This document shows, one piece after another, positions 4,814-54,901 of a DNA stretch of 64,000 nucleotides. Below the pieces are notes generated by a model. The model was not told where the DNA came from and did not search any database. It saw only the letters and a program-made list of their open reading frames with translations. Numbering within the stretch: position 1 is the stretch's first letter; each line of letters begins with the position of its first letter. Both the position numbers and the translations under genes were made by a program. This stretch comes from an uncultured Bacteriovorax sp. (GTDB lineage Bacteria; Bdellovibrionota; UBA1018): contig CAZDSX010000001.1 in assembly GCA_964508305.1 (NCBI GenBank), positions 43,388-107,387 of the forward strand. Reading direction: 5' to 3'.

Positions 4814-6235
4814 ATGGCAATGACCGGCGTCATGCAGACTGGCCGCACAGGACTCTCGGCTGCACAGGCCGGGATCTCCAATGCGGGCCATAATATTGCA
4901 AACGCCAACACGGAAGGCTTCTCGCGCCAGCGCGTCCACCAGACGGCGGAAGTCGACCGCAGCACGTCGATGAGCAGGAATCTTGTGGGCGCGGGCGCGC
5001 GCGTTGCGGGCGTGGATCGGGTTAACGACCGATTCCTGGAAAAGCAGATTCGTGCAGCCAACCGGGACCTTGCGCAGGCCGAGGAAAAGGAAATTGTCCT
5101 GAAGCAGGCCGAAGACATCTTCAACGAGATGGGCGGAGACGGGCTCAACCGCATGATGTCACGTTTCTTCAATGAGTTTCGCAAGCTCGCCAATGAGCCC
5201 GAGAACGAATCGATTCGCCAGTCTGTTCGCGAGGCCTCGCAGGCGATGATCAATGACATGAGACGCCTGCGCAAGCAGGTCGACGATGTCAGGAGCCATG
5301 TCGATTCGCGCCTTGAGGGATATGTTCGAGAAGCCAACGCCCTCACCGACGAGATCAAGGACCTCAACATCCGGATCAAGTCGCTTGAAAATGGTGGCGG
5401 ATCCTCGAATGACCTGATGGACCAGCGCGACCTCGCGCTCAAGAAGCTCAGCTCGCTGGTGGATGTCACGATGTACACGGATAACTCCGGAGGTTACATC
5501 GTCGACCTCAAGGGCCTGGGTCCGCTTGTCACCGGCGGACAGTCCGAGCAGTTCTCTGTAGAGCGTACGCCCGCAAGCGAGTCGGGCAAGGGATCGAACT
5601 CAGTTGATATCTTTCTTGTAAACGCCACCTCCGGACCAGTCACTGGCCGCATCTCTGGAGGCCGCCTCGGGGCGCTCGTCGAGGCTCGAGACAAGACCAT
5701 CGGCACGATCACTCAGCGGCTCGATGACATTGCCTACGAGCTTTCCAGGGCGGTCAACGAGGTCCACTCCCAGGGCTTTACCCGCGACGGAGCCACGCAG
5801 GTGGAGTTCTTCAAGGCCCCCGTCGCACGAGAGGGAGCGGCCGAGCAGCTTGATCTGTCGGACGCCATCAAGGACTCGGTCCACAATATTGCGGCAGCCG
5901 CGGCGCCGGAGAGCCCGGGAGACAACCGCATCGCGCTTGCCCTCTCGGGAATCCAGGGGCTGCGCATGATGAATGACGGAAAGACCACCGTGGACGATTT
6001 CTATAATTCGATCGTTTCCGAGGTGGGTGTGGCGGCCAACCGAAACAAGTCGGAGCTGAGCCAGACCAAGGATGTGAACACGCAGCTTGGAAAAATTCGC
6101 GAGCATATCAGCGGAGTTTCGATCGACGAGGAGACCACCCGGCTCATGCAGTACCAGCACGCGTTTGATGCATCAGCCCGCGTGATCAGGGTGGCCGATG
6201 AGATGATGAGGACGATTCTTTCGCTCAAGGACTGA
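4814..6235 (+). CDS. flgK: flagellar hook-associated protein 1 FlgK
   Basis: N-terminus GLSAAQAGISNAGHNIANANTEGFSRQ and C-terminus TTRLMQYQHAFDASARVIRVADEMMRTIL. 473 aa. Confidence 0.9.
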   Translation: MAMTGVMQTGRTGLSAAQAGISNAGHNIANANTEGFSRQRVHQTAEVDRSTSMSRNLVGAGARVAGVDRVNDRFLEKQIRAANRDLAQAEEKEIVLKQAEDIFNEMGGDGLNRMMSRFFNEFRKLANEPENESIRQSVREASQAMINDMRRLRKQVDDVRSHVDSRLEGYVREANALTDEIKDLNIRIKSLENGGGSSNDLMDQRDLALKKLSSLVDVTMYTDNSGGYIVDLKGLGPLVTGGQSEQFSVERTPASESGKGSNSVDIFLVNATSGPVTGRISGGRLGALVEARDKTIGTITQRLDDIAYELSRAVNEVHSQGFTRDGATQVEFFKAPVAREGAAEQLDLSDAIKDSVHNIAAAAAPESPGDNRIALALSGIQGLRMMNDGKTTVDDFYNSIVSEVGVAANRNKSELSQTKDVNTQLGKIREHISGVSIDEETTRLMQYQHAFDASARVIRVADEMMRTILSLKD

Positions 6236-6255
6236 GTGAAAGTGAGGGGTAGATC

Positions 6256-7230
6256 GTGAGAGTGACTGAGAACATGAACTTCGACTTGTCCCGCGAGACG
6301 CTGTCGAAGTCGCGCTCGCGGATGGGGCAGCTGCAGGAAAAGGCAGCCAGCACCCGCCGCCTCAACGCGCCCTCCGACGACCCCGTGGGCGCATCCAAGG
6401 TGCTGGAGATCAGGACGGACAAAGTGAATGCGGATCAGTTCATCACCAACGCGAAGCTGGCTGAAAACTTCCTGAGCAACTCGGAGGCCGCGCTAGCCGA
6501 GCTTGGAGACATCCTGATCCGTGCCAAGGAAATTGCCATCGGCCAGAGCAGTGGCGCGAGCGCAAACCCCCAGACCCGGATCGCTGTGGCCGAAGAGGTC
6601 ACGCACCTTTACCAGCAGGCGGTGGCGGCGGCGAACCGCCGGATCGGGGATCGCTATCTTTTTGGTGGATACAAGACCACCCAGCCGCCGTTTGACCGCG
6701 ATGGCAACTACCGAGGAGACGACGGCCAGATGATGGTCGAGATCTCTCGTGAAGTGTTCCTTGGGATGAATGTGCCCGGGATCGACGCCTTCAACACCAA
6801 CCCGGCGGCCGCGCGGCAGGCCCTGCAGAGGGATGCGGGAGGGCCTACCGTGTCTGGTCGGGGTCCGGCTTCGACGGCGGCACCGGAGCAGGAAAACGTA
6901 AATCTTTTCGATGAGCTGCAAAGCCTGAGGATCGGCCTCCTTTCTGGGGATCAGTCCTCGATTCAGGGAACCCTGGAGCGCTTTGACGCGCTGCATGCCA
7001 AGGTGACCTCGGTCCGCTCCATGCTGGGCAGTCGGCTTCAGGGGGTATCAGGCGCCTCACAGTCCATGGAGCGACAGATCGTGACCGGCGCTGGCCTGAG
7101 CTCGTCGATCGAAGATGCCGACATGGCGCAAGTGATGAGCGATCTCGCCCGCGAGGAGACGATCTTCAGGGGTGCTTTGGCAAGCTCCCAGAAGCTAATC
7201 CAGCCGACATTATTGGACTTTCTGAAATAA
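6256..7230 (+). CDS. flgL: flagellar hook-associated protein 3 FlgL
   Basis: Flagellin-like N-terminus (RETLSKSRSRMGQLQEKAASTRRLNAPSDDPVGA) and C-terminus (MAQVMSDLAREETIFRGALASSQKLIQPTLLDFL). Confidence 0.85.
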   Translation: MRVTENMNFDLSRETLSKSRSRMGQLQEKAASTRRLNAPSDDPVGASKVLEIRTDKVNADQFITNAKLAENFLSNSEAALAELGDILIRAKEIAIGQSSGASANPQTRIAVAEEVTHLYQQAVAAANRRIGDRYLFGGYKTTQPPFDRDGNYRGDDGQMMVEISREVFLGMNVPGIDAFNTNPAAARQALQRDAGGPTVSGRGPASTAAPEQENVNLFDELQSLRIGLLSGDQSSIQGTLERFDALHAKVTSVRSMLGSRLQGVSGASQSMERQIVTGAGLSSSIEDADMAQVMSDLAREETIFRGALASSQKLIQPTLLDFLK

Positions 7231-24260: not shown

Positions 24261-26234
24261 TCAGGTGGCCTGGTCCATCAGTTCGGCGATGTCCATGACC
24301 TTGACCTTGTCGAGCATCTCTTTGCTCTTCACGCCGTCAGTCATCATGGTCATGCAGAACGGGCACGAAGAGGCAACGATCCCTGCGTGGGTCTCGAGGG
24401 CTTGCTCGGTGCGCGTGATGTTGATGCGCTTCCCGATGTGCTCTTCCATGAACATGCGGCCCCCGCCGGCGCCGCAGCACATCCCGGAATCCCGGTTTTG
24501 TTTCATCTCCACCAGTCGCGCAGAGGGAATGGACTCAATCACGGTGCGCGGCTGCTCGTAGACGTTATTCCAGCGTCCCAGATAGCAGCTGTCATGGAAG
24601 GTGATCGACTCATCGACCCCCTTGGTGGGCTTGAGCTTTCCGTCCTTGATCAGCGAGGCAATGAACTGGGAGTGGTGGAATACTTCGTAGGTTCCGCCAA
24701 AATCCTTGTACTCGTTCTTGATCGTGTTGAAGCAATGCGGACAGGCAGTGACGATCTTCTTGATGCCATGGCGATTGAGCGTCTCGATGTTGGCTTGTGC
24801 GAGCGTCTGGTAGAGGTATTCGTTTCCGATGCGGCGAGCCGGATCGCCCGTGCACTGTTCTTCGTTGCCCAGGATTGCAAAGCGGATCCCGGCCTTCTTG
24901 AGGAGAGACACAAAGGAGCGAAGCACCTTCTTGTTGCGGTCATCGAATGAGCCCGCGCAGCCCACCCAGAGCAGGACATCAATCTCGGGGCTTTCGGCCA
25001 TGGTGGGTACCGAAAGACCCTCGGACCACTTGTCGCGATCGGCAGAGCTGAATGCCCAGGGGGTGGCGTTTGTTTCGAGATTCTTGAAGATGGTTCCGAT
25101 GCCGTCGGGCATCTTTGACTCCATCATCACAAGATTGCGGCGGATGTCGAAGATCTTGTCGGTCTGCTCGATGAAGACAGGACATGCGATCTCGCAGGCG
25201 CGGCAGCTGGTGCAGGCCCAGATGACGTCTTCGGTGATGTCCTTTCCGATCAGCGGCTTGAGCTCATCGGTCTTGCCGGCAAGGATGGCGTCCTTGTTCT
25301 CGTAAAGGTTGTGCTTGATGTCGAGGACCAGGAGCTTGGGGCTAAGCGGTTTCTGGGTGTTCCAAGCAGGACAGAGATCCTGGCAGCGCCCGCATTCGGT
25401 GCAGGCGTAGGTGTCGAGCGTGTCCTTCCAGCCGAGGTCCGTGATTTTTGCGGCGCCATATTGCGTGACACTCTCGTCCGCAAAATTGATCGGGCGCATG
25501 GCCTTCTCGCGAGTGAGCTGGCGCAGGAAAGTGTTGGGCCCTGCCGCAATGATATGCAGGTGTTTGGAGTGCGGGATGTAGGCAGCAAAGCCAAGCACAA
25601 ACAACATGTGCACCCACTTGAAGGCGGTGGCCATGGCCGCATTGCCCTCTGCGCTCAGCCCAAACCCGAGGAATGCATCCGCCAGATGCCGTGAAAAGAT
25701 GAAGTGCTCGGCATGGCCTGCCGCAGTGCTCAGGATCTGGAACCCGTTCATGCACAGGATCGAGATCATGAGCGAACCCGTGAATGTGAGCACGATGTTG
25801 GCGTCGCGCGATTGCCCGAGGCCTTCTGGCCGGATCACCAGGCGCCGGTAAAAGGCTCCACCCACGGCAAAAAGGATGGCTACCGTGAAGAAGTCCTGGA
25901 CCGAGATGAGCGGACCGTAGACGGGACCGAGGAACTCGAAGCTCCAGCTCGTGTTGAGCGTGGAGGCGAACTGTTCAAGGGTTCCAATCGTGATGATGAG
26001 AAAGCCCCAAAAGATGATCGTGTGGAGGATCCCGATCCCCTTCTTGCGCAGAACCGCCTTCTGCCCAAGGACGTGGATTGCCGTGTCGATGATGCGGGCG
26101 GGGATGTCGGTCAGGCGATTGCGGACGGGGCCCTTCTGGGCCTTGAGCATCTCAAAGAGGATCTTGAAGCGAAGCCCCGAGTAACCAAAAGCCGCACCAG
26201 CCACCAACAAAAAGGCGAACGTTTGCCATGTCAT
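24261..26234 (-). CDS. membrane-bound FeS oxidoreductase of the ETF:(mena)quinone oxidoreductase type (NarI-like b-type TM domain + 2x[4Fe-4S] + two CCG cysteine-rich domains)
   Basis: N-terminal TM helices, CTECGRCQDLCP and CTSCRACEIACP ferredoxin motifs, and C-terminal HdrD/GlpC-like CCG domains (CPHCFN..., MCCGAGGG). 657 aa. Located next to etfAB. Confidence 0.8.
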   Translation of the reverse strand: MTWQTFAFLLVAGAAFGYSGLRFKILFEMLKAQKGPVRNRLTDIPARIIDTAIHVLGQKAVLRKKGIGILHTIIFWGFLIITIGTLEQFASTLNTSWSFEFLGPVYGPLISVQDFFTVAILFAVGGAFYRRLVIRPEGLGQSRDANIVLTFTGSLMISILCMNGFQILSTAAGHAEHFIFSRHLADAFLGFGLSAEGNAAMATAFKWVHMLFVLGFAAYIPHSKHLHIIAAGPNTFLRQLTREKAMRPINFADESVTQYGAAKITDLGWKDTLDTYACTECGRCQDLCPAWNTQKPLSPKLLVLDIKHNLYENKDAILAGKTDELKPLIGKDITEDVIWACTSCRACEIACPVFIEQTDKIFDIRRNLVMMESKMPDGIGTIFKNLETNATPWAFSSADRDKWSEGLSVPTMAESPEIDVLLWVGCAGSFDDRNKKVLRSFVSLLKKAGIRFAILGNEEQCTGDPARRIGNEYLYQTLAQANIETLNRHGIKKIVTACPHCFNTIKNEYKDFGGTYEVFHHSQFIASLIKDGKLKPTKGVDESITFHDSCYLGRWNNVYEQPRTVIESIPSARLVEMKQNRDSGMCCGAGGGRMFMEEHIGKRINITRTEQALETHAGIVASSCPFCMTMMTDGVKSKEMLDKVKVMDIAELMDQAT

Positions 26235-26325
26235 AGAGTGCCTAACAGTTTAAGCGCGCGGCCTATCTGCAGCAACCGAGAACGGCAAAGGATGGCTTGA
26301 GGCCAGAAAATTGGCGCTCGAGAGA

Positions 26326-27294
26326 TCAGTGCTCCTTGAGCTTCTTGAACTCGTCTTTCAGAAGCGGCGCCACGGCAAACAGGTCTCCCACGATCCCGTA
26401 GTCGGCCACCTGGAAGATGGGCGCCTCGGGGTCGGTGTTGATGGCCACGATCACCTTGGAGGTGCGCATGCCGGCCAAGTGCTGGATGGCTCCGCTGATC
26501 CCGCAGGCGATGTAGAGATTGGGGGAAACGACCTTGCCGGTCTGGCCCACCTGGTCGCGGTGCGGGCGGAAGCCTGCGTCCACGGCTGCGCGGGAGGCGC
26601 CGACGGCTGCGCCGATCGTATCAGCCACTTCTTCGAGGATCTTGAAGTTATCGGCGTTCTTGAGCGAGCGACCGCCCGAGATCACGGTTCCTGCCTCGGT
26701 CACATCCGGACGTCCGGCCTGGCCCTGGACCACTTCGGTCACTTGGGTCGTCACGCCGGAGAGCGACACTGCCACGGTCTGGACGGCAGCTGACTTGGAG
26801 GTGTCCGCCTTGGGCATGCCCAGGGCGTTTGCGCGAACGGTCGCAAGCTTTGGGCCCGCGCCCAGGAATTCCACTTCGACCGTGGCCTTGCCCGCATAAA
26901 CCGGGCGGCGGGCCACGATCCCGTTTCCTTCAAACTTGAGGCTGATGCAGTCGGTGGCAAGCCCCGCGCCGAGACGGGCTGCGACCTTCGGCATGAAGTC
27001 ACGGCCGGTCGGTGAGTGGGCGGCCAGGATCACGTCGGGCGAAAGCGCCTTTGCGACCTGCACCACGACCTGGCTGTAGGCCTCGGCCGTGTAGAACTTC
27101 AGGCCCGCATCGTTTGCGACGTGGACCTGGGCGGCACCATAGTGTCCAAGTTCGGCAGCAAGGCCCTGGATGCCTTCTCCGAGGAGGAGGACATGGGTTT
27201 CGTTGCCTGCGGCGCTTGAGGCGCCGACGAGTTCAAACGAAGTCTTCTTGAGCTTGGAATCGCGCTGTTCGGCGATGACGAGTACTTTTGCCAT
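26326..27294 (-). CDS. etfA: electron transfer flavoprotein alpha subunit
   Basis: [10 protein letters not shown]..., FAD-binding C-terminal region [34 protein letters not shown]. Confidence 0.9.
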
Positions 27295-27296
27295 GA

Positions 27297-28070
27297 TTAG
27301 AGCACCTTTGCTTCTTCGTGGAGGAGGCGAGCGAGTTCCTTGGCCTGTGCAGCCGGCTCACCGGCCAGCTTCTTTCCTGCCTGCTTGGGCGGCGGGAGCT
27401 GGAAGTTCTTGTAGCGGATCTTCTGGTCCGCGTCGGTCACGCCGAGGTCGGATTCCTTGAGGACCTTCACTTCCTTCTTCTTGGCCTTCATGATGTTGGG
27501 AAGGCTTGCGTAGCGCGGTTCGTTCATTCCCTTTTGGGCTGCGATGAGCGCAGGAAGCGGAGTGGTGACGATTTCGAAGGCACCGCCTTCGACTTCGCGC
27601 TTGCACTTGAGCGAGGCCGCTCCGTACTCGACATTGAGCACGACGGTGACATACGGCAGCCCTGCAAATTCGGCCACAAGCTGGCTCACTTGCGCGGAAC
27701 CATCGTCGATGGCCTCCTTGCCCGTGAACACGATATCAACCTTGGGCTCCTTCTTGAGTGCCGCAGCCAGCGCCTTGGCCGAGCGATAGTTGTCCGCACC
27801 TTCGGCAGCATCGACATGGATTGCGTTGTCTGCTCCCATGGCGAGCGCCGTGCGGAGGGTGTCTACCACGCGAACCGGACCAGCCGAGATCACGGTGACC
27901 GTGCTGCCTGGATTCTTGTCGCGAAGGCGGAGTGCCTCTTCGACTGCGAACTCATCATAGGGCGACATGATCCACTTGATTCCCGTGGTGTCGATGCCGG
28001 TGTTGTCGCCGTTGAGCTTGATCTTGGTCTCGGTGTCCGGAACCTGCTTGATGCAGACGTAGATGTTCAT
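27297..28070 (-). CDS. etfB: electron transfer flavoprotein beta subunit
   Basis: MNIYVCIKQVPDT...IKW.MSPYDEFAVEEALRL..VTVIS.GP matches canonical EtfB. Confidence 0.9.
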   Translation of the reverse strand: MNIYVCIKQVPDTETKIKLNGDNTGIDTTGIKWIMSPYDEFAVEEALRLRDKNPGSTVTVISAGPVRVVDTLRTALAMGADNAIHVDAAEGADNYRSAKALAAALKKEPKVDIVFTGKEAIDDGSAQVSQLVAEFAGLPYVTVVLNVEYGAASLKCKREVEGGAFEIVTTPLPALIAAQKGMNEPRYASLPNIMKAKKKEVKVLKESDLGVTDADQKIRYKNFQLPPPKQAGKKLAGEPAAQAKELARLLHEEAKVL

Positions 28071-28082: not shown

Positions 28083-29249
28083 TTATAGCGATGCGCTCAA
28101 GATCTCTGCAACCTGTTTTAGGACCGCCACGTCGCTGCAAAGCGTGAAGCGGACAAAACCTTCACCGCCACGGCCAAAGCCGGTTCCTGGCGTGCTCACG
28201 ATCCCCTTGGTGCGAATCAGGTTGAGGACGAAATCCTCGGACTTGAGCCCTGCGGCAAGCTTGCACCAGACGTAAAAAGTTGCCTCAGGCGTCCGACAGG
28301 AGAGGCCCGCCTTGCGGAGCGCGGGGACCAGGATATCCCGACGCTTTTGGTAAATTGCTCGAAGCTCCGTGCAGAAGGGCTCGTAGTGATCGAGGGCTTC
28401 GATGCCCGCCTCCTGGCAGGCGTTGAAGATCCCGGAATCGATGTTGGTCTTGACCTTGGCCAGGCCCTCTATGACGCGAGCATTGCCCGCGACAAAGCCC
28501 ACGCGCCAGCCCGTCATATTGAAGGTTTTGGATAGGCTGTGGAACTCCACGCCCACGTCCTTGGCACCAGGCACCTCCAGGAAGGAGCACTGGGCCTTTC
28601 CGTCGAAAAACAGCTCCGAGTAGGCATTGTCGTGGCAGACGATGATCTCGTGCTTTTTGGCAAACGAGACGACTTCCTTGAAGAACTCCCGTGTTGCAAC
28701 CGCCCCGGTGGGGTTGTTCGGGTAGTTCAGGAACAGGAGCCTGACCTTGGGGCCCGTCTTCACGAGTCGTTCGAGATCTGCAAAGTCCGGCAGGAAGCCG
28801 TTCTCCTCCTTGAGGAGGAAGGGGAGCGGGATCCCATCTGCAAAGAGGGTGGCCGAGTTGTAGACGGGATAGCCCGGGTCGGGAACCAGGGCGGCCTCCC
28901 CCGGGTTCACGAACGCAAGCGGGATGTGGGCGATGCCCTCCTTGGACCCGATGAGTGCCAGGACCTCGGTGTCAGCGTTCAGTCCGACGCCGAAGCGCTT
29001 TTCCATGAAGCGAGCGGAGGCCCTCCTGAATTCCGACATCCCCCAGTAGGACGGGTACTGGTGGTTCTCGGGGTTTCGCGCGGCCTGTTCAAGCCTCTTG
29101 ATGATGAACTCCGGGGTGGGGAGATCCGGATCGCCGATTCCAAGGGCGACCAGCTTTCGTCCCTTCTTGATCTCCTCCTGCTTGATCTGGTCAATGCGGG
29201 CAAAGAGGTAGGGGGGCAGCTGCTTGAGCCTGTGGGTCATTTCAAACAT
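28083..29249 (-). CDS. dapL: LL-diaminopimelate aminotransferase, DapL type (class I aminotransferase)
   Basis: LPPYLFARIDQIKQEEIKKGRKLVALGIGDPDLPTPEFII...NHQYPSY.GMSEFR, SLSKTFNMTGWRVG (PLP Lys). Lies in a dapA-dapB context. Confidence 0.75.
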   Translation of the reverse strand: MFEMTHRLKQLPPYLFARIDQIKQEEIKKGRKLVALGIGDPDLPTPEFIIKRLEQAARNPENHQYPSYWGMSEFRRASARFMEKRFGVGLNADTEVLALIGSKEGIAHIPLAFVNPGEAALVPDPGYPVYNSATLFADGIPLPFLLKEENGFLPDFADLERLVKTGPKVRLLFLNYPNNPTGAVATREFFKEVVSFAKKHEIIVCHDNAYSELFFDGKAQCSFLEVPGAKDVGVEFHSLSKTFNMTGWRVGFVAGNARVIEGLAKVKTNIDSGIFNACQEAGIEALDHYEPFCTELRAIYQKRRDILVPALRKAGLSCRTPEATFYVWCKLAAGLKSEDFVLNLIRTKGIVSTPGTGFGRGGEGFVRFTLCSDVAVLKQVAEILSASL

Positions 29250-29977
29250 GAGAGTTTCTCCTCAAAAAAATCATCCAGGGTGAGCCATCCCGCGCCCGTG
29301 GGCTCGGACTTTTGCTTCTTGCCCAGCCAGAGGGCGGTCTCAAGAGCCCCTCGAGCAAAGATTTCGCGCGACTGCGCGTGGTGCTCGAGCGTGACGCGCT
29401 CGCCATGTCCATGGAACTCCACGCGGTGATCGCCGATCACCTCACCCGCACGGATGCTGTGGATCCGCTCGCTGGAGAGGCCCGAGGTGGCAGCGGCCAG
29501 GGTGATGGCCGTCCCGCTCGGGGAATCCTTTTTATGGATGTGATGGGTTTCCACCATCAATGGGCGGAAGCCCGAGGCCGAGAGGATCGGGGAGATGAAC
29601 TCCAGGGCCTTCCTCAGGGCCAGCACTCCGGTGGAGAAATTCGATGCCTGCAGCACCCGGGTTCGTCGGGCAACCGAGTCGAGCTCCGCCTTCTCCTGGG
29701 CCGAGTGTCCGGTCGTTCCAATCACGAGTGCAGGAAGCAGGCGCGAAGATGGTGCGCTTGCCAGTGCTCGGGTCAGCCTGGCAGTACCCTTGGGAAGCGA
29801 AAAATCCACCCACACATCGGCAGCAAGTGCATCCTCCCATTCCGAGTCATCCGACAGGGAGTGAAGGCTTGCGATGAGCTCCGAGCTTGCGGCGAACTCC
29901 CCTGCAATGAGGTGCGCGAGCGCCCGGCCCATCTTGCCGCGCGATCCGATGATGGCAATCCGCAGGCGCGCAGCCAT
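29237..29977 (-). CDS. dapB: 4-hydroxy-tetrahydrodipicolinate reductase
   Basis: IAIIGSRGKMGRA (NAD(P) binding). ETHHIHKKDSPSGTAI is the DapB signature. Confidence 0.85.
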   Translation of the reverse strand: MAARLRIAIIGSRGKMGRALAHLIAGEFAASSELIASLHSLSDDSEWEDALAADVWVDFSLPKGTARLTRALASAPSSRLLPALVIGTTGHSAQEKAELDSVARRTRVLQASNFSTGVLALRKALEFISPILSASGFRPLMVETHHIHKKDSPSGTAITLAAATSGLSSERIHSIRAGEVIGDHRVEFHGHGERVTLEHHAQSREIFARGALETALWLGKKQKSEPTGAGWLTLDDFFEEKLSCLK

Positions 29978-30898
29978 TTAGAGGGTTCCTCCGCCAGCCC
30001 GAAGCCCGCAGCGCAGGAGGCTTGCTTCGAGCCTCTTCTGGTTGTCGCTCGAGAGGGCCACGAGGGGAGCGCGAACCGTCGATGTGCAAAGAGCGGTGGA
30101 AGGCGATTCGCCCACGAATGCAAGCGATGCCTTGATGGGAACCGGATTGGACTCGATGAAAAGATCCCGAAAAAGGGGATAGAAGCGCTGGTGGAGCTCG
30201 AACGCCTCCCGGTTTTTTCCCTCTTCAAAAAGACGCTGGATGCGGACCATGGCCCGTGGAAAGAGGTTGCTTGCAACCGAGACCACGCCCACGGCGCCGG
30301 CAGCAAGAAGGGGAAGAAAGGTGGCATCATCGCCAGAGAAGATCTCAAGCGAATGTCCTGCCACCTGGAACTGGTCGATATATTCGGAGGCAAGCCCGAC
30401 GTTGCCCGTGGCTTCCTTGAACCAGCGGATGCGCGGGTGTGCCGCAAGCTTGGCCGCGGTTTCAGGAGGCAGGCTCACGCCCGTTCTTCCCGGGACATTA
30501 TAGAGCATCACGGGACAGCTCACTGAGTCGGCCACCTGGATGAAGTGTGAATAAAGTCCGGCAGCAGAGGGCTTGTTGTAATACGGAGTGACGATCAGGA
30601 CGCCATCCGCCCCGGCCTGTGAGGCCCAGCTCGAGAGCGAAACGGTGTCCGGAGTCGAGTTGCTTCCCGTGCCTGCGATCACTCGCGTGCCGGTGCCCCG
30701 GCAGGTGCGGATGGACTCCGAGATGAGGGTCTTTTTCTCCTCGGTCGAAAGAGTGGGACTCTCTCCCGTGGTCCCGCACGGGATGACGGCTGATACACCG
30801 GCAGCAATCTGGTCCTTGATCAGTCGGTCAAAGGCCGCCAGATCCAGCGATCCGTCGGCGTGGAAGGGGGTCACGAGTGCAGTGATGATGCCTTTCAT
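29978..30898 (-). CDS. dapA: 4-hydroxy-tetrahydrodipicolinate synthase
   Basis: MKGIITALVTPF...GVSAVIPCGTTGESPTLS, YNVPGRTG. Start ATG 30898 overlaps the lysA stop (ATGA). The long upstream extension in the tool ORF is rejected. Confidence 0.9.
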   Translation of the reverse strand: MKGIITALVTPFHADGSLDLAAFDRLIKDQIAAGVSAVIPCGTTGESPTLSTEEKKTLISESIRTCRGTGTRVIAGTGSNSTPDTVSLSSWASQAGADGVLIVTPYYNKPSAAGLYSHFIQVADSVSCPVMLYNVPGRTGVSLPPETAAKLAAHPRIRWFKEATGNVGLASEYIDQFQVAGHSLEIFSGDDATFLPLLAAGAVGVVSVASNLFPRAMVRIQRLFEEGKNREAFELHQRFYPLFRDLFIESNPVPIKASLAFVGESPSTALCTSTVRAPLVALSSDNQKRLEASLLRCGLRAGGGTL

Positions 30899-32196
30899 GG
30901 GCGCTCCCCTCGTAGCAGATCCGAGAGCTGCTCGCGATCCCGGATCACGCGGGCGCGCTTGCCGGAGACCAGGATCTCGGCCGGCCTGGTTCGCGTATTG
31001 TAGTTGCTTGCCATGCTCATCCCATATGCGCCGGCGCTCATGAATGCGACCAGATCCCCCGAACAGAGGCCCGTCGAAAGCGGGCGGTCCGAGCCAAAGC
31101 AGTCTCCGCTCTCGCAAACCGGACCCACGACGTCGGTTGGCTTTTTTCGGCCACGCGACTGGGATTGCTCGACAGGGAGAATGTCGTGGTAGCTGCCGTA
31201 GAGCGCCGGACGCATGAGGTCGTTCATTCCCGCATCCAAGATCAGGAAGTCCTTGCTCGGGCGAGGCTTTCGAAAGAGGACCTGCGAAACGAGGATCCCC
31301 GAGTTGCCGCTCAACACTCGACCCGGCTCAAGCAGGATGCGAAGGCGGTTCTTGAACGGAGAGCTGTTGCCGAAGGCGCGGACCACTTCCCTGCAGTAGT
31401 CGGAGATCCGGGGCGGCTTCTCATCCTTATACTGGATTCCGACGCCTCCACCCAGGTCGGCAAACTCAAGCGGCCTTCCGATGGTCGATTCCACATTGAG
31501 GATCTCGCGGCCCAGCATCGAAAAAGCCTCCTTGAGGGGCTTGAGCGAAGTGAGCTGGCTTCCGATGTGGATGCTCATTCCGCAAAGCTTGACGTTGGGA
31601 AGCGAAGGGAGCAGGGCCACGGCCTCGCGAACCTCCTGGGCATTGAGGCCAAACTTGTTCCGCTTGAGACCCGGGCTGTTCTACGGGTGGGTCTTGGCGT
31701 CGATCTTGGGGTTGAACCGGAGCGCCACTCGCGCCGGAGGGCGTCCGGTGGCCCTGGTCACGGCATCGATCATGATGAGTTCCTGCACGGACTCCACGTG
31801 GAAGGAGGTGATGCCCGGGCGTCGCCCAACATTATAATGAAGGCCCGCACTGATCTCCTCGGGGGTCTTTCCGACGCCTGAAAACACGACGCGATCTCCG
31901 GGGATCCCGGCAATCCTTGCGCGCTCAAGCTCTCCGCCCGATACCAAGTCTGCGCCGGAACCGAGCTTGCCCATCATCTTGACGATGGCGATGTTGGAGT
32001 TTGCCTTGAGCGCGTAGCAAATGGTCAGGTCCCGGATCGACGATAGCCCCGAGGCAAGGGCGCGATACCGGGTTTCGAAAGCCGTGGCGCTGTAGATGTA
32101 AAGCGGCGTCCCGTGCTCGCGGGCCAGTCGGTCCACCGGCATGCCGTCGGCGTGAAGGACGCCCTTGATGTACTTGAACTGAGGATGGTCGCTCAT
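30895..32196 (-). pseudogene. lysA: diaminopimelate decarboxylase lysA interrupted by one in-frame TAG (minus-strand codon 31683..31681) at the conserved Tyr of the HP-Y-ISTG motif; otherwise intact
   Basis: N-terminal part (YALKANSN, ...KIDAKTHP) and C-terminal part (NSPGLKRNKFGLN...EPGR..CESGD.F) are in the same frame, separated only by TAG where homologues have TAY. Confidence 0.6.
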
Positions 32197-32345
32197 GGTG
32201 CTCCTTGGGTGCTCCGTGGGGACGGTGAGGGTTCGGGTGAGAGTTCGGCTGCCGAGGGAACCGGCGGAAGCGGGGGCCCCTTGACCCCGCAGCCGGAGAT
32301 CAGCGCAGTAGCCAGCAACAGACAGGGAAGCAGGATTTTCAACAT
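32193..32345 (-). CDS. lptM: small Pro-rich lipoprotein LptM (YifL) family
   Basis: MLKILLPCLLLATALISGCGVKGPPLPPVP matches the LptM hallmark (signal + GCGxKGPLxxPP). GAGG RBS. Stop overlaps the lysA ATG (ATGA). Synteny with lysA/dapF is typical. Confidence 0.55.
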   Translation of the reverse strand: MLKILLPCLLLATALISGCGVKGPPLPPVPSAAELSPEPSPSPRSTQGAP

Positions 32346-32355
32346 GAATGCCTCA

Positions 32356-33429
32356 TTAAAACCTGAGATCAAGGCCAAGGCTGACTTGGTCCACGCCCAG
32401 ATCCGTGCGTAGGTACCACTGAGGTCCGACCTGGAGCGTGGCTCCCACGCCGAGGGCCACTTGGATTGAACCCAGGACGGATGCTGCCGCAGAGGCGGAA
32501 GGCTCGGTCCCCGACTTCGTCACCACAACGGGCTTGATCAGCCCACCGTAGGCAAAAAGCCCGAAGCTCTCGCTGTAAAGCCAGTTGTACCGACCCGTCA
32601 CGATGAGCGGTAGAAGGGTGTAGGAGTCGCCCGAGATGTCCGAGTAGTCGAGGATCTTCGAAACCAGCAGCGAGATGTCGAGCGACAGGCTGTCCTGGAG
32701 GCGTTTGTCAGAAAAGTAGATGGGGTGGGACAGGGTCCTTGAATAGCGGGGGCCGGCTGCGGCCACGTAAAACGCACCAGACTCGAACTTGGGGAGACGT
32801 AGAAACGCAGTGTGGATGCCCACGGAGTCGGTCTCGGGCAGGTAGTTGGGGGTTTCTTCGTAGGCAAGCACCTTGAGTTCCCGCTCTTCGGCTTCGGTCA
32901 GCGATTGAGCCGTTTGATCCTCGGCAGGTGGAGGTGCACCAGGCTGGCTGACGTCCAGGGGAGAGGGTTCGGGGCCACCTTTCCCGAGGGATGCTTTTTC
33001 GGCGGCTACTTGCTGGTCGAGTTCCTCGAGTGACAAGTCACGGATCTTGAGGATTCCCCGGAAGGCCCCCCCGATCTCTGGCTTGAAAAAGTCGTCATAG
33101 CTTCGGACACGCTGGGCGGCAAAGCGCGAGCCCCCGTCTGAGAGTCCCTGTGGTTCGAAGATCTTGATCACCCGGAGAGCAATCAGCGGACGAGGGCCAT
33201 CCTTGAGGAGGATCAGCTGCCGGTCTCTGGGAGCCTCCTGGGGCGAAGTGAACTGGAGGACCGCTCCGCTCGTGCTCTTCTTTTCAATTGTGAGATCAAG
33301 CGCACGAATCTCGATATCCGGGAGCTTCTCGTCATTGGCCCGAGCCGCGGGTCCGACCACCGAGAGGAGCAGGGTGCAAATTAATGCTTGAACCCGCAGG
33401 CGAATTGGAAGGAAGTGGGCCTTGTCCAT
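32356..33429 (-). CDS. hypothetical outer-membrane (beta-barrel-like) protein
   Basis: Signal peptide MDKAHFLPIRLRVQALICTLLLSVVGPAARA, alternating-hydrophobic C-terminus ending LGLDLRF (terminal Phe). Confidence 0.45.
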   Translation of the reverse strand: MDKAHFLPIRLRVQALICTLLLSVVGPAARANDEKLPDIEIRALDLTIEKKSTSGAVLQFTSPQEAPRDRQLILLKDGPRPLIALRVIKIFEPQGLSDGGSRFAAQRVRSYDDFFKPEIGGAFRGILKIRDLSLEELDQQVAAEKASLGKGGPEPSPLDVSQPGAPPPAEDQTAQSLTEAEERELKVLAYEETPNYLPETDSVGIHTAFLRLPKFESGAFYVAAAGPRYSRTLSHPIYFSDKRLQDSLSLDISLLVSKILDYSDISGDSYTLLPLIVTGRYNWLYSESFGLFAYGGLIKPVVVTKSGTEPSASAAASVLGSIQVALGVGATLQVGPQWYLRTDLGVDQVSLGLDLRF

Positions 33430-36644: not shown

Positions 36645-36705
36645 GTTGAGTTCCTTTCCTCTTGGTAAGTCGTGATCCCGTAAGCTACCCTCGGGAAAAT
36701 CCAGA

Positions 36706-37425
36706 ATGCAATCCACCCAGCGACAAAAATCCGTCATGACGCGCGTGCTTCCGGTGTTGGTCCTTTTGCTTGGGACTTCTTGTGTTCGCGTTCCGTTGGG
36801 CCCGCCGGCCGGCCAGGGCCCGGTCTCCATCCGGCTGACCTCGGGCTGGCTGCCCGCGGAGCTGCGGGTGGCTGTTCCGGGCGCGCTTCCTCGGCGGGAT
36901 CTGGCGGTCGAGGCGGGGATTCGAGCACAGGCACTTCGACTCGCTGAGGCGCGCCCGGGAAGTGTAAAACTTTTTGTAGCGCAGGATGACGCGCCACAGC
37001 CCGTCTACCTCCAAGAGGGCGGGGTGTGGTGGTTCAGTATCCAGGCGCTCAAGCTGGTCCAGTTCGAAAATGAGTTCGCAGCCCTGATTGCCGCGGCGCT
37101 GTCTCTTGCCGAGAGCCCCGCTGGAGGAGCGGTGGATTCCGGGAACGAAGCGGAGAATCCCTGGAAGCCCGTGACGCGACTCATGGTCAGGAAACTCTAT
37201 CAGTCGGGCTATGATCCGCGCGGCGTGCCGAGTCTCTGGCGTCGTTGGGGCGTCGTGGTGAGGCAGGGCTTCAGGGCGACTCCCAAGCAGTTGGCGTGGT
37301 CGACCCTCGCTCTTGAGCTCGAAGAGGAGGCCCATGCTGAAATCGCCAAACTTCCGCCGCTCATGAATCCAGTTGTCCGCACGCCAGAGTTTGCGAAGAT
37401 CGAAAAGAGGCTTCAAAAACTGTGA
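36706..37425 (+). CDS. hypothetical lipoprotein (co-operonic with amgK-murU)
   Basis: Signal/lipobox VLVLLLGTSC. 4-nt overlap with the downstream kinase gene. Confidence 0.45.
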   Translation: MQSTQRQKSVMTRVLPVLVLLLGTSCVRVPLGPPAGQGPVSIRLTSGWLPAELRVAVPGALPRRDLAVEAGIRAQALRLAEARPGSVKLFVAQDDAPQPVYLQEGGVWWFSIQALKLVQFENEFAALIAAALSLAESPAGGAVDSGNEAENPWKPVTRLMVRKLYQSGYDPRGVPSLWRRWGVVVRQGFRATPKQLAWSTLALELEEEAHAEIAKLPPLMNPVVRTPEFAKIEKRLQKL

Positions 37426-42637: not shown

Positions 42638-43291
42638 ATGGATGACTCTTCACTACCGGAACTCCCGGTCCTGCTTGAGGCACAGTCGGTGACTGACTTG
42701 AGTCCTGCGGCGCAAGGGGCGATGTTCCTTGATGAGTCGGCGATCGCCATCAATGCGAGCAAGCTTGCGGCACTTGAGGGGATGGCCGGGCTCTTGGGTC
42801 GTGATCTGTCCTACCAGGACTTCATGAGGGAGATCCTCCTTGTCTTCCTCAAGGCCATCAAGTGCGAGGCAGGATCCCTGTTCGAAGCAGAACCGGATGG
42901 AAAGGTGCTTTTTTTCAGGGCGGTCGCCGGCCAGAGCTCCGACCAGCTGGACAGCATCCGGATTCCTGCGGGCAAGGGGATCGTGGGCCACGTGCATGAA
43001 AGTCGCCAGATCACCCATGTCGCGGACTGCAGCAAGGACGATCGATTCCTGAAAACCGTGGGGGATGCCGTGGGCTTCCAGACCCGCAACCTCATTGCGG
43101 CACCCATTGTCATCCGCGGCCGCGTTTTCGGCGTGGTCGAGGTGATCAATAGAATGGGTGAGGGTGGCTTCACGAGCGAGGACATCGAGCTCATCGGATA
43201 TCTTTGCGATGCGGCCTCCAAGTTCATCGAGGCCAGGCTGGTGATGAACTGGGTTGCAACCCTGGGCGTTCCTGAACAAAAGGCGGCCTGA
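42638..43291 (+). CDS. GAF-domain protein (stand-alone), translationally coupled to pilT
   Basis: Start MDDSSLPEL (42638). GAF core FEAEPDGKVLFFRAVAGQ...IPAGKGIVGHV...DCSKDDRF...NLIAAPIVIRGRVFGVVEVINR. Its TGA overlaps the pilT ATG (TGATG). Confidence 0.65.
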   Translation: MDDSSLPELPVLLEAQSVTDLSPAAQGAMFLDESAIAINASKLAALEGMAGLLGRDLSYQDFMREILLVFLKAIKCEAGSLFEAEPDGKVLFFRAVAGQSSDQLDSIRIPAGKGIVGHVHESRQITHVADCSKDDRFLKTVGDAVGFQTRNLIAAPIVIRGRVFGVVEVINRMGEGGFTSEDIELIGYLCDAASKFIEARLVMNWVATLGVPEQKAA

Positions 43292-44406
43292 TGTCCTCTC
43301 CTGCGCGTCTGCCTCCCGCTTCGCGGTCCATGCAGATCGACATCCACTACCTGGTCGAAGCGCTGGTTCGTTTCAGCGCCTCGGACCTGCATCTCAAGGT
43401 GGGGCGACCGCCCATTTTCCGGATCAACGGAAAACTCGTGCCCGCCAAGATGCCTCCACTGGACTCCGAGACCGTGGAGCGGATCGTGGTGGGACTTCTT
43501 ACCAAGCGACAACAGCAGGAGCTTGAATCCAAGCTTCAGGTGGATCTGTCCTTCAGGATCGGGGATCTGGGGCGCTTCAGGTGCAATGTCTACCAGCAGC
43601 GAAACACGCTATCCGCCGCAATTCGCATGATTCCGGTCCAAATTCCGCGGTTTGAGTCACTTGGGGTTCCTCCAGTGCTCAAGGAACTCGCGCAGCGGTC
43701 CCATGGACTCATCTTGGTGACCGGAGCCACGGGTGCGGGAAAGTCTACGACGCTTGCCGCCCTTGTGAACTACCTCAATGAGACGCAGCCCATCCACATC
43801 CTCACGATTGAGGATCCGATTGAGTTTGTTTATCGCGACCAGAAGGCTTCCGTCACGCAGCGTGAAGTGGGGACTGATACGATGTCCCTTCACGAGGCCC
43901 TGCACGCGGGGCTCAGGCAGGATCCCGACGTGGTTGTGCTGGGCGAAATGCGAGATTACGAGACCATGAAGGTGGCCATGACTGCAGCGGAGACCGGGCA
44001 CTTGGTTCTCTCGACGCTGCACACGGTGGATGCCCGAGGTACGGTCGAGCGCATCTTGGATATGGTTCCGTCTGGAGCACAAAACCAGATGAGGCTCCAG
44101 CTGGCGTCTTCCTTGGTTGCCGTGGTTTCGCAGCAGCTCGTTCCCCGGGCGGACCGAAAGGGTCGGGCACTCGCCGCAGAGGTTTTGGTCAACTCCCCGG
44201 CCATCGAGAACCTGATTGCCAACAACCAGGTGGATCGAATCGCCGAACTCATCGCGTCATCAACGGACTATTACCAGATGCAGACGATGAACCAGGCCCT
44301 ATTAAAGCTGACCGAGTCGGGAGTCATCACTGCCGCTGATGCCATCAAGGCCTCCTCGCATCCGGGTGAGCTTACCCAGCTTCTTTCAGGCATTGTGCGA
44401 GAGTAG
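43291..44406 (+). CDS. pilT: type IV pilus retraction ATPase PilT/PilU family
   Basis: GLILVTGATGAGKSTTLAALVNYLN (Walker A), ILTIEDPIEF, VVVLGEMRDYETM (Walker B/Asp box), His box LVLSTLHT. Confidence 0.9.
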   Translation: MSSPARLPPASRSMQIDIHYLVEALVRFSASDLHLKVGRPPIFRINGKLVPAKMPPLDSETVERIVVGLLTKRQQQELESKLQVDLSFRIGDLGRFRCNVYQQRNTLSAAIRMIPVQIPRFESLGVPPVLKELAQRSHGLILVTGATGAGKSTTLAALVNYLNETQPIHILTIEDPIEFVYRDQKASVTQREVGTDTMSLHEALHAGLRQDPDVVVLGEMRDYETMKVAMTAAETGHLVLSTLHTVDARGTVERILDMVPSGAQNQMRLQLASSLVAVVSQQLVPRADRKGRALAAEVLVNSPAIENLIANNQVDRIAELIASSTDYYQMQTMNQALLKLTESGVITAADAIKASSHPGELTQLLSGIVRE

Positions 44407-50680: not shown

Positions 50681-50766
50681 GCACAAAGGATACTTCCACT
50701 TGGGGTTGAACCCAAGCAATCCCGCATTGCCTGCATGCTGCACCTCACCTAAGATTCAGGAATCCC

Positions 50767-52335
50767 ATGCGCCTGGCCATCATCGACCTAGGAACGAACT
50801 CAGTCCGCTTTGACGTCCACCAGCTGGGCCCGGGGCGCCAGTCGAGGCTCCTGCACCGCGAGAAGCTCATGGTCAGGCTCGGCCAGGGGGTCTTCCTCGA
50901 CGGGAAGCTGGATGCCGAAGCGCAGCGCCGTACCCTCCATGCATTCGAGAGCTTTTCCCACACCTGCACGGAACTGGGCGTGGACCGGACGGTCGCCTTC
51001 GGAACGAGCGCCCTGCGTGAGGCCTCCGACGGTGGGCGGCTCCTGGAGCAGATCAAGGAGCAGTCCGGAATCGAGGTCCGTGTCATTTCGGGAGCCGAGG
51101 AGGCGCGCTGGATTGCACGCGGGATCCTTGCCCATGAAAGCGGGACGAACGGAAAGTTTGCACTCATTGATATCGGCGGCGGCAGCACGGAGATTTCCAT
51201 CTGTCGTGGGAGCCAGGTGCTGCATTCCGAAAGCTTTCCGCTCGGGACGGCAAGGCTCCAGCAGGTTTTCCTCAAGGCCAGCCCTCCAGCCGCCAAGCCC
51301 GGGGAGCGGGACCCGGTGGATGCACTTCGGGTGTACCTGCGTTCAGTCCTCCTGCCCAAGATGATCGCCGAGGAGTGGCCCAAGGTGGATCGGGTGATTG
51401 GATCCAGCGGTACGATCAAGGCCCTCGAAAAGCTCATCGAAAAAGACAACGGACTTGGCGATGGGCCCAAGAAAAAGAAGAAGGCAAAAAAGTCCAAGGC
51501 AGCAAAGCTCACCCGCGATGCGCTCAAGGACATGGTCGAGGACATGTCCGGGATGAACACGGCCCAGCTGCTGGGCATGCCCGGGATGGAGTCCAAGCGA
51601 GTGGACATGATCCTTGCCGGGGGCGTGCTGTTTGAGGAGTGCCTTCGTGCAGTAGGTGCGAAGCGATTCAGTTTCACCCCATACGCCCTTCGAGATGGAA
51701 TTCTTGAAGAGGAGATGCAGCTTTTCCTTGCCCGAAAGGACTCCCACATCTCCGCCCATCTGGGCGACCTTGAGGCGAGGGCGCGCAAGCTTGGTTGCCA
51801 GGAGGCGCATTTCAAGAAGGTGGCCGATATTGCCAGCTTCCTCTTCGACAAGCTGCGCGGCCTCCACAAGCTGGGCGCCGGCTGGAAGGTTTACCTTACG
51901 GCCGCGGCGATCCTCCATGATACGGGCGAGGCGATCAATCCAAGTCGACATGGTGAGCATGCCTATTACGTCATCCGGAACGCCGATTTTCCATCGCTTG
52001 AGAAGTGGGAAATAGAGTTCCTTGCCCTGCTTGCCCGGTGGCACTCCGGCGGCAAGGTCGATCCAAAGGCCTTGCAGGCACTCAAGGGCCATGTCGATCG
52101 TCGAGTGTTCCTTTCGCTGCTGGCCCTGCTTCGCGTGGCCGACGCCCTGGATCGCGGCCATCGCGGTGGGGTCCTGCTCAAGGATGTTCGCGTGGCTCGC
52201 CAGCAGGTGACCCTGATCCTTGACCCCAGGGGATCGAGCGATCTGGAGATGCTCCGGGTGGAACAAAAGCGGGACCTGTTCGAGGAAACCTTCGGAAGAA
52301 GGCTTGTGGCCGAGCGGGGTCGGCGGCGGCGCTAG
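50767..52335 (+). CDS. ppx: exopolyphosphatase / guanosine pentaphosphate phosphohydrolase (Ppx/GppA) with C-terminal HD domain
   Basis: MRLAIIDLGTNSVRFDV, IDIGGGSTE, ASKHD actin-like fold. C-terminal HD region ILHDTGEAINPSRHGEHAYYVI. Confidence 0.85.
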   Translation: MRLAIIDLGTNSVRFDVHQLGPGRQSRLLHREKLMVRLGQGVFLDGKLDAEAQRRTLHAFESFSHTCTELGVDRTVAFGTSALREASDGGRLLEQIKEQSGIEVRVISGAEEARWIARGILAHESGTNGKFALIDIGGGSTEISICRGSQVLHSESFPLGTARLQQVFLKASPPAAKPGERDPVDALRVYLRSVLLPKMIAEEWPKVDRVIGSSGTIKALEKLIEKDNGLGDGPKKKKKAKKSKAAKLTRDALKDMVEDMSGMNTAQLLGMPGMESKRVDMILAGGVLFEECLRAVGAKRFSFTPYALRDGILEEEMQLFLARKDSHISAHLGDLEARARKLGCQEAHFKKVADIASFLFDKLRGLHKLGAGWKVYLTAAAILHDTGEAINPSRHGEHAYYVIRNADFPSLEKWEIEFLALLARWHSGGKVDPKALQALKGHVDRRVFLSLLALLRVADALDRGHRGGVLLKDVRVARQQVTLILDPRGSSDLEMLRVEQKRDLFEETFGRRLVAERGRRRR

Positions 52336-52826
52336 GGTTTCTGGATCACTTCGATCGAGAGCGGCTCCAGCGGATCATCTGAAGTCGAGGCGCTGCCCGG
52401 GAACTCAAGCCCGACGATGGCACCCTTGGAGATTTCCATCCGCTTTCCGGTGCAGATGCCGACCAAAAGGGGGATCCAGTCCCCGTGCGAGCAGGCGATG
52501 GTCATTTCGGCTTCCGACGCCACCCAGGCTTCGAGCCATTCCAGCACCCGCGTACCCAGTGCGCCCGGGGATTCTCCGTCGCGCTGTTCCTCGAGGCCCG
52601 GATCCACGCGGAGCCTTGCGCCGGTGGCAAGGGCGAGCGGTTCCAGGGTCTCCCGACATCGGACTCGGGGGCTGGTGAGCACCTCCCCCGGCATGGGGAG
52701 GCCTGAGCGGACAAACCAGTCTCGCACACGAAGCGCCTGCTCGCGGCCCTTTTCGGTCAGGCCATTATCCTGCGCTCGGTCGCTCACATCGCGATGGGCG
52801 TGACGTACGAGGTAGAGGCGCCTCAT
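52332..52826 (-). CDS. histidine-phosphatase-superfamily protein, SixA-like phosphohistidine phosphatase
   Basis: LYLVRHAHRD (RHG catalytic motif), GLTEKGREQA, CSHGD. Overlaps the ppk1 stop by 4 nt. Confidence 0.65.
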   Translation of the reverse strand: MRRLYLVRHAHRDVSDRAQDNGLTEKGREQALRVRDWFVRSGLPMPGEVLTSPRVRCRETLEPLALATGARLRVDPGLEEQRDGESPGALGTRVLEWLEAWVASEAEMTIACSHGDWIPLLVGICTGKRMEISKGAIVGLEFPGSASTSDDPLEPLSIEVIQKP

Positions 52827-54901
52827 TCGAGAGGTGTTCCCTTGTAGTGGTTGTGGGCAAGCTCCGCGAAGATAAACTGTGAGCGCACGGCGTTTTTCTG
52901 TGACCTGACGGAGACCTTCTTCCAGGTTCCCTGGGGCGTCAATTCGCGGGCCTTGGTCGTATCCTGGAGGTAGGTGGGGATCAGCACCTCTGTGAGGTAT
53001 CGATACAGCAGTGGGTGGACCACGGGAAAAGCGATCTCCAAGCGCGAGAAAAAATTGCGGGGCATCCAGTCCGCACTGGAGAGGTAAAGGGCCCGACCAT
53101 TCTCGAAGTAGTAAAGTCGCGAGTGTTCCAGGAAGCGATCCACGACGCTGATCACCCGGATGTTTTCGCTCAGTCCCTTGACTCCCGGGACCAGGGAGCA
53201 GGCACCACGGACGATGAGGTCGACACGAACGCCAGCCATGGAGGCATGGTAGAGATTCTCGATCACGGCATCGTCCACCAGCGCATTGACCTTCGCCACG
53301 ATCCTTGCGGGCTTGCCCTCCTTTGCCGCCTGGGTTTCGGCCTTGATGTGGGAGAGCAGGCGTCGATGGAGCTGGGTGGGCGCCGAGACCAGGAGCTTGA
53401 AGCTCGTGGGAATCTGTCCCGTGCTCACTCCGTCAAAGAAAAGCTTGGCATCCTGCCCGATCTCCTGGCTTGCAGTGAGGATGGCAAGGTCCGTGTACTG
53501 GCGGGCCGTTGCGGAGTTGTAGTTGCCGGTCGAAAGGTGAGTGTAATAGCGCACTCCATCGGGCTCGTTGCGCGTGACGAGCGCCACTTTGGCGTGGAGC
53601 TTGAGCTTCCCAAAACCGAAGGCCACTTCAACGCCGGCTGAGCGGAGTTCCTCGGCAAGCCTGAGGTTGTTGAGCTCGTCGAATCTGGCGCGAAGCTCGA
53701 TGGCGACCCGGATCTTCTTGGTGGAGGAGGCTTTCTTGAGTGCCGCCAGCACCGGTGAAACTGCGTCCATGCGGTAGACGGTCAGGTCGATGGCGGCGAC
53801 CAGCGGGTCATCGCAGGAGGCCTGGATCCAGGCAATGAAGCATTCAAAGCCATCATAGGGATGGTGGAGGAGGAAGTCGTGCTTCTGGAGCTCCTCAAAA
53901 ACGCCCTGCTTTTCACGCAGGAAGCCCGGGATGAATGGCTGGATGGGCTTGTGCTTGAGTGAGTGCTTTTCGACAAGCTCCTCTGGGGCCTGGTTGAAAA
54001 GGGTCCAAAGCCCGTGGAGGCAGAGCGTTCCGGGAGCCAGGAAGATTTGCGAGGGCGCCAGCCTGAAGTGCCCGAGGCTCCTCTGCAGGATCTGCTCGGA
54101 GAGGCTTCCGAGATATTGGATCCTCACGACGCGACCGCGGTCTCGGGTGCTGAGGCTTGAGCGGACGACGTCCGGGATGGTCTCGGGGTCTTCTTCGTCA
54201 AGGTCGAGTGAAAAATCTCCGTCACGCGTGAGTCGAACAATGGCAGGTTCGCCTTCGAGACCCAGTGCGGGCCCGAGATGGGTCATGAGGAGGTCGTCCA
54301 GGAAATAAAGCCGTGAGTCACGGAAGAAGACCGAAGGCGTGGATCGCGGAACCTTGAAGAAGATGGAGCTGGGAAAAATCACGCCAAGCTGGAAATTCTC
54401 GAGGGCTGCAAACTTGGCCATCGAGAAGCCTTCGGGAGGCGAGAGGTGGGGGAGCACCAGCTCACGAAAAACCACGGCTCCCGACTCATGGGCGGGCTCG
54501 CCGGGACGTGCCTGGCGGATGATCTGGATGCCCAGGGTCTCGAGCTCACCCGAGAGCATGTCCAGCGCCTCTCCCTGTTTTGCGCCGAACTTTGAAATCG
54601 TTTCGAGGAGCGAGGCCCTGATCCTGGAGAGGTGCCGATGCTGAGTGGCCTCGGCGTCGCGCCTGACCTGGGCTGCGATCGACCGGGTGAGCGAGGCCAG
54701 TCGGATCATGAAAAACTCATCCAAGTTTGATGCTGAGATGGCCAGGAACTTGGCCCGCTCTAAAAGGGGGTTGGTCCCCTGGCGCGCCTCGGCGAGGACG
54801 CGCTCGTTGAACTGCATCCAGCTTAGGTCGCGATGGATCAGGGGGGTTTCCGGAGCTGCCAGCAGCGAGGGCAGCGTGGGGAGGAATCGAACCTGCTGCA
54901 T
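52823..54901 (-). CDS. ppk1: polyphosphate kinase 1
   Basis: N-terminus RDLSWMQFNERVLAEA.....LERAKFLAISASNLDEFFMIR, PLD-like C-terminal domains. 692 aa. Confidence 0.95.
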   Translation of the reverse strand: MQQVRFLPTLPSLLAAPETPLIHRDLSWMQFNERVLAEARQGTNPLLERAKFLAISASNLDEFFMIRLASLTRSIAAQVRRDAEATQHRHLSRIRASLLETISKFGAKQGEALDMLSGELETLGIQIIRQARPGEPAHESGAVVFRELVLPHLSPPEGFSMAKFAALENFQLGVIFPSSIFFKVPRSTPSVFFRDSRLYFLDDLLMTHLGPALGLEGEPAIVRLTRDGDFSLDLDEEDPETIPDVVRSSLSTRDRGRVVRIQYLGSLSEQILQRSLGHFRLAPSQIFLAPGTLCLHGLWTLFNQAPEELVEKHSLKHKPIQPFIPGFLREKQGVFEELQKHDFLLHHPYDGFECFIAWIQASCDDPLVAAIDLTVYRMDAVSPVLAALKKASSTKKIRVAIELRARFDELNNLRLAEELRSAGVEVAFGFGKLKLHAKVALVTRNEPDGVRYYTHLSTGNYNSATARQYTDLAILTASQEIGQDAKLFFDGVSTGQIPTSFKLLVSAPTQLHRRLLSHIKAETQAAKEGKPARIVAKVNALVDDAVIENLYHASMAGVRVDLIVRGACSLVPGVKGLSENIRVISVVDRFLEHSRLYYFENGRALYLSSADWMPRNFFSRLEIAFPVVHPLLYRYLTEVLIPTYLQDTTKARELTPQGTWKKVSVRSQKNAVRSQFIFAELAHNHYKGTPLE

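Follow-up and report, generated by a model that had tools for sequence, protein, structure and literature searches.

An in-frame TAG in lysA of a metagenome-derived Bdellovibrionota-like genome probably reflects a local consensus error

Introduction

Diaminopimelate decarboxylase (DAPDC, LysA) is represented among solved structures by the Helicobacter pylori enzyme (PDB 2qgh), a fold-type III PLP decarboxylase whose motif THPYISTG is identical in the Vibrio and Psychromonas structures. The Ile of this motif is exactly where two H. pylori entries, 2qgh and 3c5q, diverge. Hu et al. reportedly described, in 2008, an Ile148 active-site-loop mutant of H. pylori DAPDC, and the difference between the two entries presumably corresponds to that mutant.

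When a stop codon appears in frame at a conserved residue of a metagenome-derived genome, it invites ideas about recoding or auxotrophy, and such cases call for caution. Local errors reported in metagenome-assembled genomes typically include indels and chimeric joins; the case described here is a pure burst of four substitutions. We analyzed lysA within a stretch of 64 kb, referred to below as the window. The LysA encoded there shows colinear, full-length similarity to H. pylori DAPDC and has all catalytic motifs in common with it, but its active-site-loop motif reads THP*NSPG (the asterisk marks a stop) and its reading frame is interrupted.

Results

The lysA gene occupies 30895..32196 on the minus strand, with 433 codons plus TGA, and is interrupted at codon 172 by an in-frame TAG (31681..31683, minus strand) where same-strain assemblies have TAC (Tyr). 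Read on the minus strand, the region is ACC CAC CCG TAG AAC AGC CCG GGT CTC AAG, or T-H-P-*-N-S-P-G-L-K. An earlier note on this DNA had placed the two halves of the gene in a single frame separated by one TAG, and this proved correct: the codon at 31683..31681 is the sole stop between the ATG (32196) and the TGA (30897..30895). With X at the stop, the product matches TIGR01048 at 437.3 bits (cutoff 297.9), with a single alignment running from profile position 6 to 416 of 417, and solved DAP decarboxylases in the PDB align with it from end to end with E-values down to 1e-101. All LysA catalytic motifs are kept (ALKAN with K64, HIGSQ, GGG, EPGR, CESGD and GAY), and the protein matches the invariant columns K64, H210-Q214, G249-G251, E290-R293, C361-D365 and G389-Y391. 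Judged from these features, the predicted product is a LysA family member in every respect except two, both broken by a 32-bp patch: its frame stops at TAG codon 172, where the same-strain allele P0122 runs on uninterrupted, and its H-P-Y-I-S-T-G loop has become H-P-*-N-S-P-G.

In the deposited record, the gene is represented by two separate proteins. The N-terminal fragment (31684..32196, minus strand; 171 aa) matches one of them exactly (P0121), while the C-terminal fragment, 241 aa from a GTG (30895..31620, minus strand), is 100% identical to the other (P0010). Both proteins come from NCBI and lie on a contig of 176,763 bp, indicating that the break belongs to the deposited record and was not introduced later. 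Elsewhere in LysA, a variable surface loop at codons ~122-127 (~31815..31835, minus strand) is 5 codons shorter than in the 89%-identical orthologue P0001, with NVGRRPG in the window and KVGPDKMGTASG in the orthologue. This loop is the most variable part of LysA among relatives.

The genes around lysA lie on the same strand. Directly upstream, a small lipoprotein-like ORF of 61 aa (32193..32378, minus strand) carries a signal peptide and a Cys; its match to the LptM family NF047847 is sub-threshold (21.1 bits, cutoff 27.7). Downstream are dapA (29978..30898, minus strand; 306 aa; TIGR00674, 309.5 bits, cutoff 206), dapB (29237..29977, minus strand; 246 aa; TIGR00036, 139.8 bits, cutoff 122) and dapL, encoding LL-diaminopimelate aminotransferase (28083..29249, minus strand; 388 aa; NF006756, 557 bits, cutoff 507). 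The earlier description of these three genes as intact stands, since each passes its NCBIfam cutoff and has the same length as in a relative. For dapA, that relative is L001, the source of an 89%-identical lysA, and the exact DapA protein is present in the NCBI set; an identical copy of the DapB protein occurs in three other assemblies.

ATGA overlaps join the lipoprotein TGA to the lysA ATG and the lysA TGA to the dapA ATG, and dapB and dapL overlap by 13 nt. These overlaps suggest that the genes form one translationally coupled operon. Directly downstream of the dap genes are etfB, etfA and a gene for a 657-aa Fe-S/CCG-domain oxidoreductase (24261..28070, minus strand). L001 has the same order, lysA-dapA-dapB-dapL-etfB-etfA, and keeps the oxidoreductase in place as well, showing that the lysA-dap-etf gene order is conserved.

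The nearest named relatives among the matches listed are Oligoflexia and Bacteriovorax MAGs. In a scan of genome contigs, the closest among the matches listed was an uncultured Bacteriovorax MAG, at 57% identity. The window also contains a flagellar cluster with FlgM/FlgN/FlgK-type genes (3880..7230, plus strand) and a PilT-like type IV pilus ATPase (43291..44406, plus strand), both compatible with a motile, Bdellovibrionota-like organism. Two long ORFs overlap on opposite strands, one of 243 aa (36685..37416, minus strand) and one of 239 aa (36706..37425, plus strand).

Comparing the window base by base with two same-strain contigs (L085 and L086), we found that the TAG lies in a 32-bp patch (31674..31705, minus strand) containing four substitutions private to this assembly. 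On the minus strand these are AAT>AAG at 31705 (N164K), TAC>TAG at 31681 (Y172*), ATC>AAC at 31679 (I173N) and ACG>CCG at 31674 (T175P). The coding-strand spectrum, T>G, C>G, T>A and A>C, consists entirely of transversions (4/4), and every change is non-synonymous (4/4). The stop had been presented earlier as a one-base difference in an intact motif, a description that has to be given up in view of the three other substitutions (N164K, I173N and T175P) within the same 32 bp. The window motif reads THP*NSPGLKRNKFG, as against THPYISTGLKRNKFG in 15/15 close relatives, and the upstream Asn, eight codons before the TAG, is Lys. Because the TAG is one of four clustered transversions, the weight shifts strongly to either an artefact or a single complex mutational event.

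To see how the four altered positions vary in the family, we counted residues in 120 homologues with at least 47% identity. Position 164 is D in 89 of them, N in 30 and E in 1, with K in the window. At position 172, where the window has its stop, Y occurs 114 times, H 5 times and F once. Position 173 is I in 118 homologues and V in 2, and is N in the window, while position 175 is T in 120/120 and P in the window. None of the four window states (K, stop, N and P) appears in its column in any of the 120. Conservation of Tyr172 is near-universal but not universal, so the claim that all homologues have Tyr was too strong; at the same time, three further conserved residues are also wrong in the window.

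An intact copy of the gene exists in the same strain. The 90%-identity cluster that includes both window fragments has a third member, P0122, a full-length LysA of 433 aa whose source is two independent runs, SRR28327208 and SRR31616102. It differs from the window LysA solely by N164K, Y172*, I173N and T175P. At the DNA level, the 1,945-bp contig from SRR31616102 (L086) matches the window at 1,941/1,945 bases, with mismatches at 31705, 31681, 31679 and 31674. The 2,033-bp contig from SRR28327208 (L085) shows the four patch differences plus two C/T transitions of the synonymous type. SRR28327208 is a NovaSeq metagenome from Lake Soyang, Korea, taken at 10 m depth (PMC12254480).

As a baseline, we compared the window with the same-strain contigs L085-L089 and L091, which amount to ~12 kb and represent at least five samples; L087-L089 and L091 were obtained from two DRR runs and an ENA assembly from Japan. 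Look-ups with dapB and with cluster members yielded same-strain contigs. Outside the patch, these ~12 kb contain 12 differences from the window and 0 indels. Transitions outnumber transversions eight to four; seven of the 12 changes are synonymous, and the other five replace residues conservatively (T/I, D/G, E/A, K/Q and I/V). The resulting rate is ~1e-3 per base, compared with 4 in 32 bases within the patch. If 1,945 bp contain four differences, the chance that all of them fall inside 32 bp is ~1e-5 by order-of-magnitude arithmetic. The comparison shows four lysA changes that are private, atypical and tightly grouped, alongside an intact allele whose background is otherwise identical.

Other parts of the window were also found in these data. 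Sequence 99.7-100% identical to 28562..32644 and 50736..53845 (L085-L089, L091) is present in several metagenomes: SRR28327208 (Lake Soyang, Korea), DRR333367 and DRR333369 (DDBJ), ERZ28617412 (Japanese ENA, SAMD00112393) and SRR31616102. This near identity suggests that a single clonal lineage may be widely distributed, with a freshwater lake as at least one of its sources. Within ppx (51771..51921, plus strand), the window differs from the same-strain ENA contig L091 at five sites in 150 bp, all of them synonymous third positions. This cluster looks like a small natural recombination tract, in contrast to the lysA patch. A search of JGI metagenome contigs for both motif alleles with exact flanks gave no match, and exact-protein look-ups with the C-terminal lysA fragment, dapA, dapL and the upstream 393-aa gene returned no indexed contigs.

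We estimated selection on lysA with the Nei-Gojobori method, using the 89%-identical orthologue in L001 for comparison. The dN/dS ratio is 0.053 for the whole gene, 0.072 upstream of the stop and 0.042 downstream, and the DNA differences fall mostly at third codon positions. On this estimate, purifying selection on lysA is strong in this lineage. Scattered lesions are expected in a pseudogene of any age; lysA has none outside the patch and thus shows no decay. A long-standing or decaying pseudogene is ruled out by the dN/dS of 0.05, the intact motifs and the confinement of private changes to 32 bp.

Discussion

Given these comparisons, we consider it probable that the deposited metagenome-derived assembly contains a local consensus error and that the in-frame TAG belongs to it. 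The changes are private, clustered, restricted to transversions and blind to selection, and two independent datasets contain the intact allele, a combination that a consensus error fits. We infer a technical rather than a biological cause for the patch. The earlier note had offered sequencing error, a very recent nonsense mutation and readthrough as possible explanations; the first fits best, the second stays as a rival and the third finds no support. In a consensus error of this kind, four wrong base calls within 32 bp would enter the contig as one burst, possibly because a single poor-quality read stretch was kept to span a position of thin coverage. In that case the organism, which is a Bdellovibrionota/Oligoflexia-like bacterium of freshwater, would most likely have an ordinary functional lysA at the head of its lysA-dapA-dapB-dapL operon.

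The quality of the remaining assembly is a counterpoint to this reading. It looks accurate, with 0 indels and ~0.1% differences in 12 kb, and any artefact must therefore be a rare local event. In addition, De Bruijn assemblers usually drop paths that rest on one erroneous read, except where coverage is very low. In a consensus sequence, an error of this kind would look no different from a genuine complex mutation that arose in one event.

The strongest rival, which we regard as unlikely but worth serious attention, is that a real, very recent and strain-private complex mutation inactivated lysA and left a lysine auxotroph fed by its prey or environment. The mechanism we would assign to it, with the same reservation, is a single event changing several nucleotides, for instance a patch of error-prone repair. 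Clustered multi-base mutation events do occur in bacteria, the TAG is present in the deposited record, and the lineage is related to predatory Bdellovibrionota, which could take lysine from prey. The undecayed state of the rest of lysA is compatible with a very recent event. However, intact lysA is found in the same strain from two other samples, and the motif is kept in all 120 relatives examined. With purifying selection on lysA this strong (dN/dS 0.05), a rare type of mutation would have had to become dominant. Clusters of four substitutions account for only a tiny fraction of mutation events in nature, and the polymorphisms in the baseline are mostly transitions and over half synonymous, unlike those in the patch. 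The stop would also lie ahead of dapA, dapB and dapL in an operon of overlapping genes, where polar effects might add a cost for essential meso-DAP synthesis.

Were the four-base haplotype nevertheless real, one error-prone repair event would have cost one freshwater Oligoflexia/Bdellovibrionota population its lysA, a scenario to which we give rather little credence. It would represent the first step of amino-acid biosynthesis loss in a prey- or community-dependent bacterium, with otherwise identical, lysA-intact populations elsewhere. A real lesion would be a loss-of-function allele that arose very recently, and its ecological interest would be modest.

Decoding of the TAG, whether by programmed readthrough, a suppressor tRNA, pyrrolysine or a reassigned code, would also restore full-length LysA. 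The two halves share one frame and the downstream half is still under purifying selection relative to the orthologue, as decoding would predict. Even so, we regard this explanation as highly improbable. In the window, TAG is an ordinary stop: a greedy gene set gave 34 TGA, 16 TAA and 8 TAG terminators (the lysA TAG included), and TAG ends at least 7 of ~57 other window genes, with Pfam domains ending normally. For example, flgN ends in TAG, its product aligns to the Pfam profile from position 2 to 145 of 147, and flgK comes directly after it and starts from a separate ATG; another TAG-terminated ORF precedes Maf, which begins at profile position 1. The PilT-like ATPase and Ppx/GppA (ppx) genes are further cases of TAG termination.

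Nor does the TAG in lysA have company or conservation. The earlier note had proposed looking for other in-frame TAGs in essential genes; when we scanned all stops that have open runs of 100 codons or more on each side, lysA was the sole internal-TAG case in the 64 kb, once gene-gene junctions and obvious non-coding shadow frames were set aside. The codon is TAC in L085 and L086, TAT in L001 and Tyr, His or Phe in the 120 homologues. No tRNA with a CUA anticodon was found within the window, where only tRNA-Gln(UUG) and tRNA-Arg(CCG) are encoded, and the 131-nt segment that surrounds and follows the TAG shows no more folding potential than shuffled sequences do (z = 0.23). A readthrough product would still bear Asn and Pro in place of the Ile/Val and the invariant Thr of the active-site-loop motif. 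The checks of stop usage, domain ends, internal stops, tRNAs and folding within the 64 kb gave no support to a change of genetic code or readthrough.

Hypermutation by a diversity-generating retroelement (DGR), or a patch templated by a repeat or quasi-palindrome, would account for the tight clustering, but we assign these a negligible likelihood: the T>G, C>G, T>A, A>C spectrum is not adenine-specific, which speaks against DGR-type hypermutation of a target that is in any case a housekeeping enzyme core rather than a variable ligand-binding domain, and a templated or gene-conversion origin is left without support by the lack of a donor copy in the window (none for the TAG-proximal mutant stretch at up to 3 mismatches in the 64 kb) and of a local repeat (none >8 bases covering any of the four sites within +/-2 kb). 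The matches within +/-2 kb were only chance 8-mers, direct or inverted, and the mutant allele matched no better than wild type, leaving template switching or quasi-palindrome correction unsupported.

Returning to a local consensus error as the favored explanation, the stop in lysA most likely has no biological reality. A metabolic reconstruction that counts lysA as absent from this genome, and its owner as a lysine auxotroph, would probably be wrong.

Three groups of known systems resemble what we observe at this locus. Stop-codon recoding, as in pyrrolysine use, TAG-reassigned codes or programmed readthrough, has in common with it an in-frame TAG in an otherwise conserved gene. Here, however, TAG is a normal terminator, it is not conserved in orthologues, and neither a recoding signal nor a suppressor tRNA was seen in the 64-kb window. 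Amber nonsense alleles and young pseudogenes that affect biosynthetic genes of host- or prey-dependent bacteria are similar in that a single-base change, TAC>TAG, cuts short a gene that is otherwise intact. In contrast to them, the window lysA carries three further non-synonymous transversions inside 32 bp and shows neither relaxed selection nor other lesions, and intact alleles exist on the same background. Known local consensus errors in metagenome-assembled genomes offer the third likeness: a short private stretch at odds with every other assembly of the same population, breaking a conserved gene in an otherwise accurate contig, with a spectrum unlike natural polymorphism. The lysA feature is closest to these local errors; if it is biological instead, it is a young nonsense allele of the ordinary kind, and neither is new.
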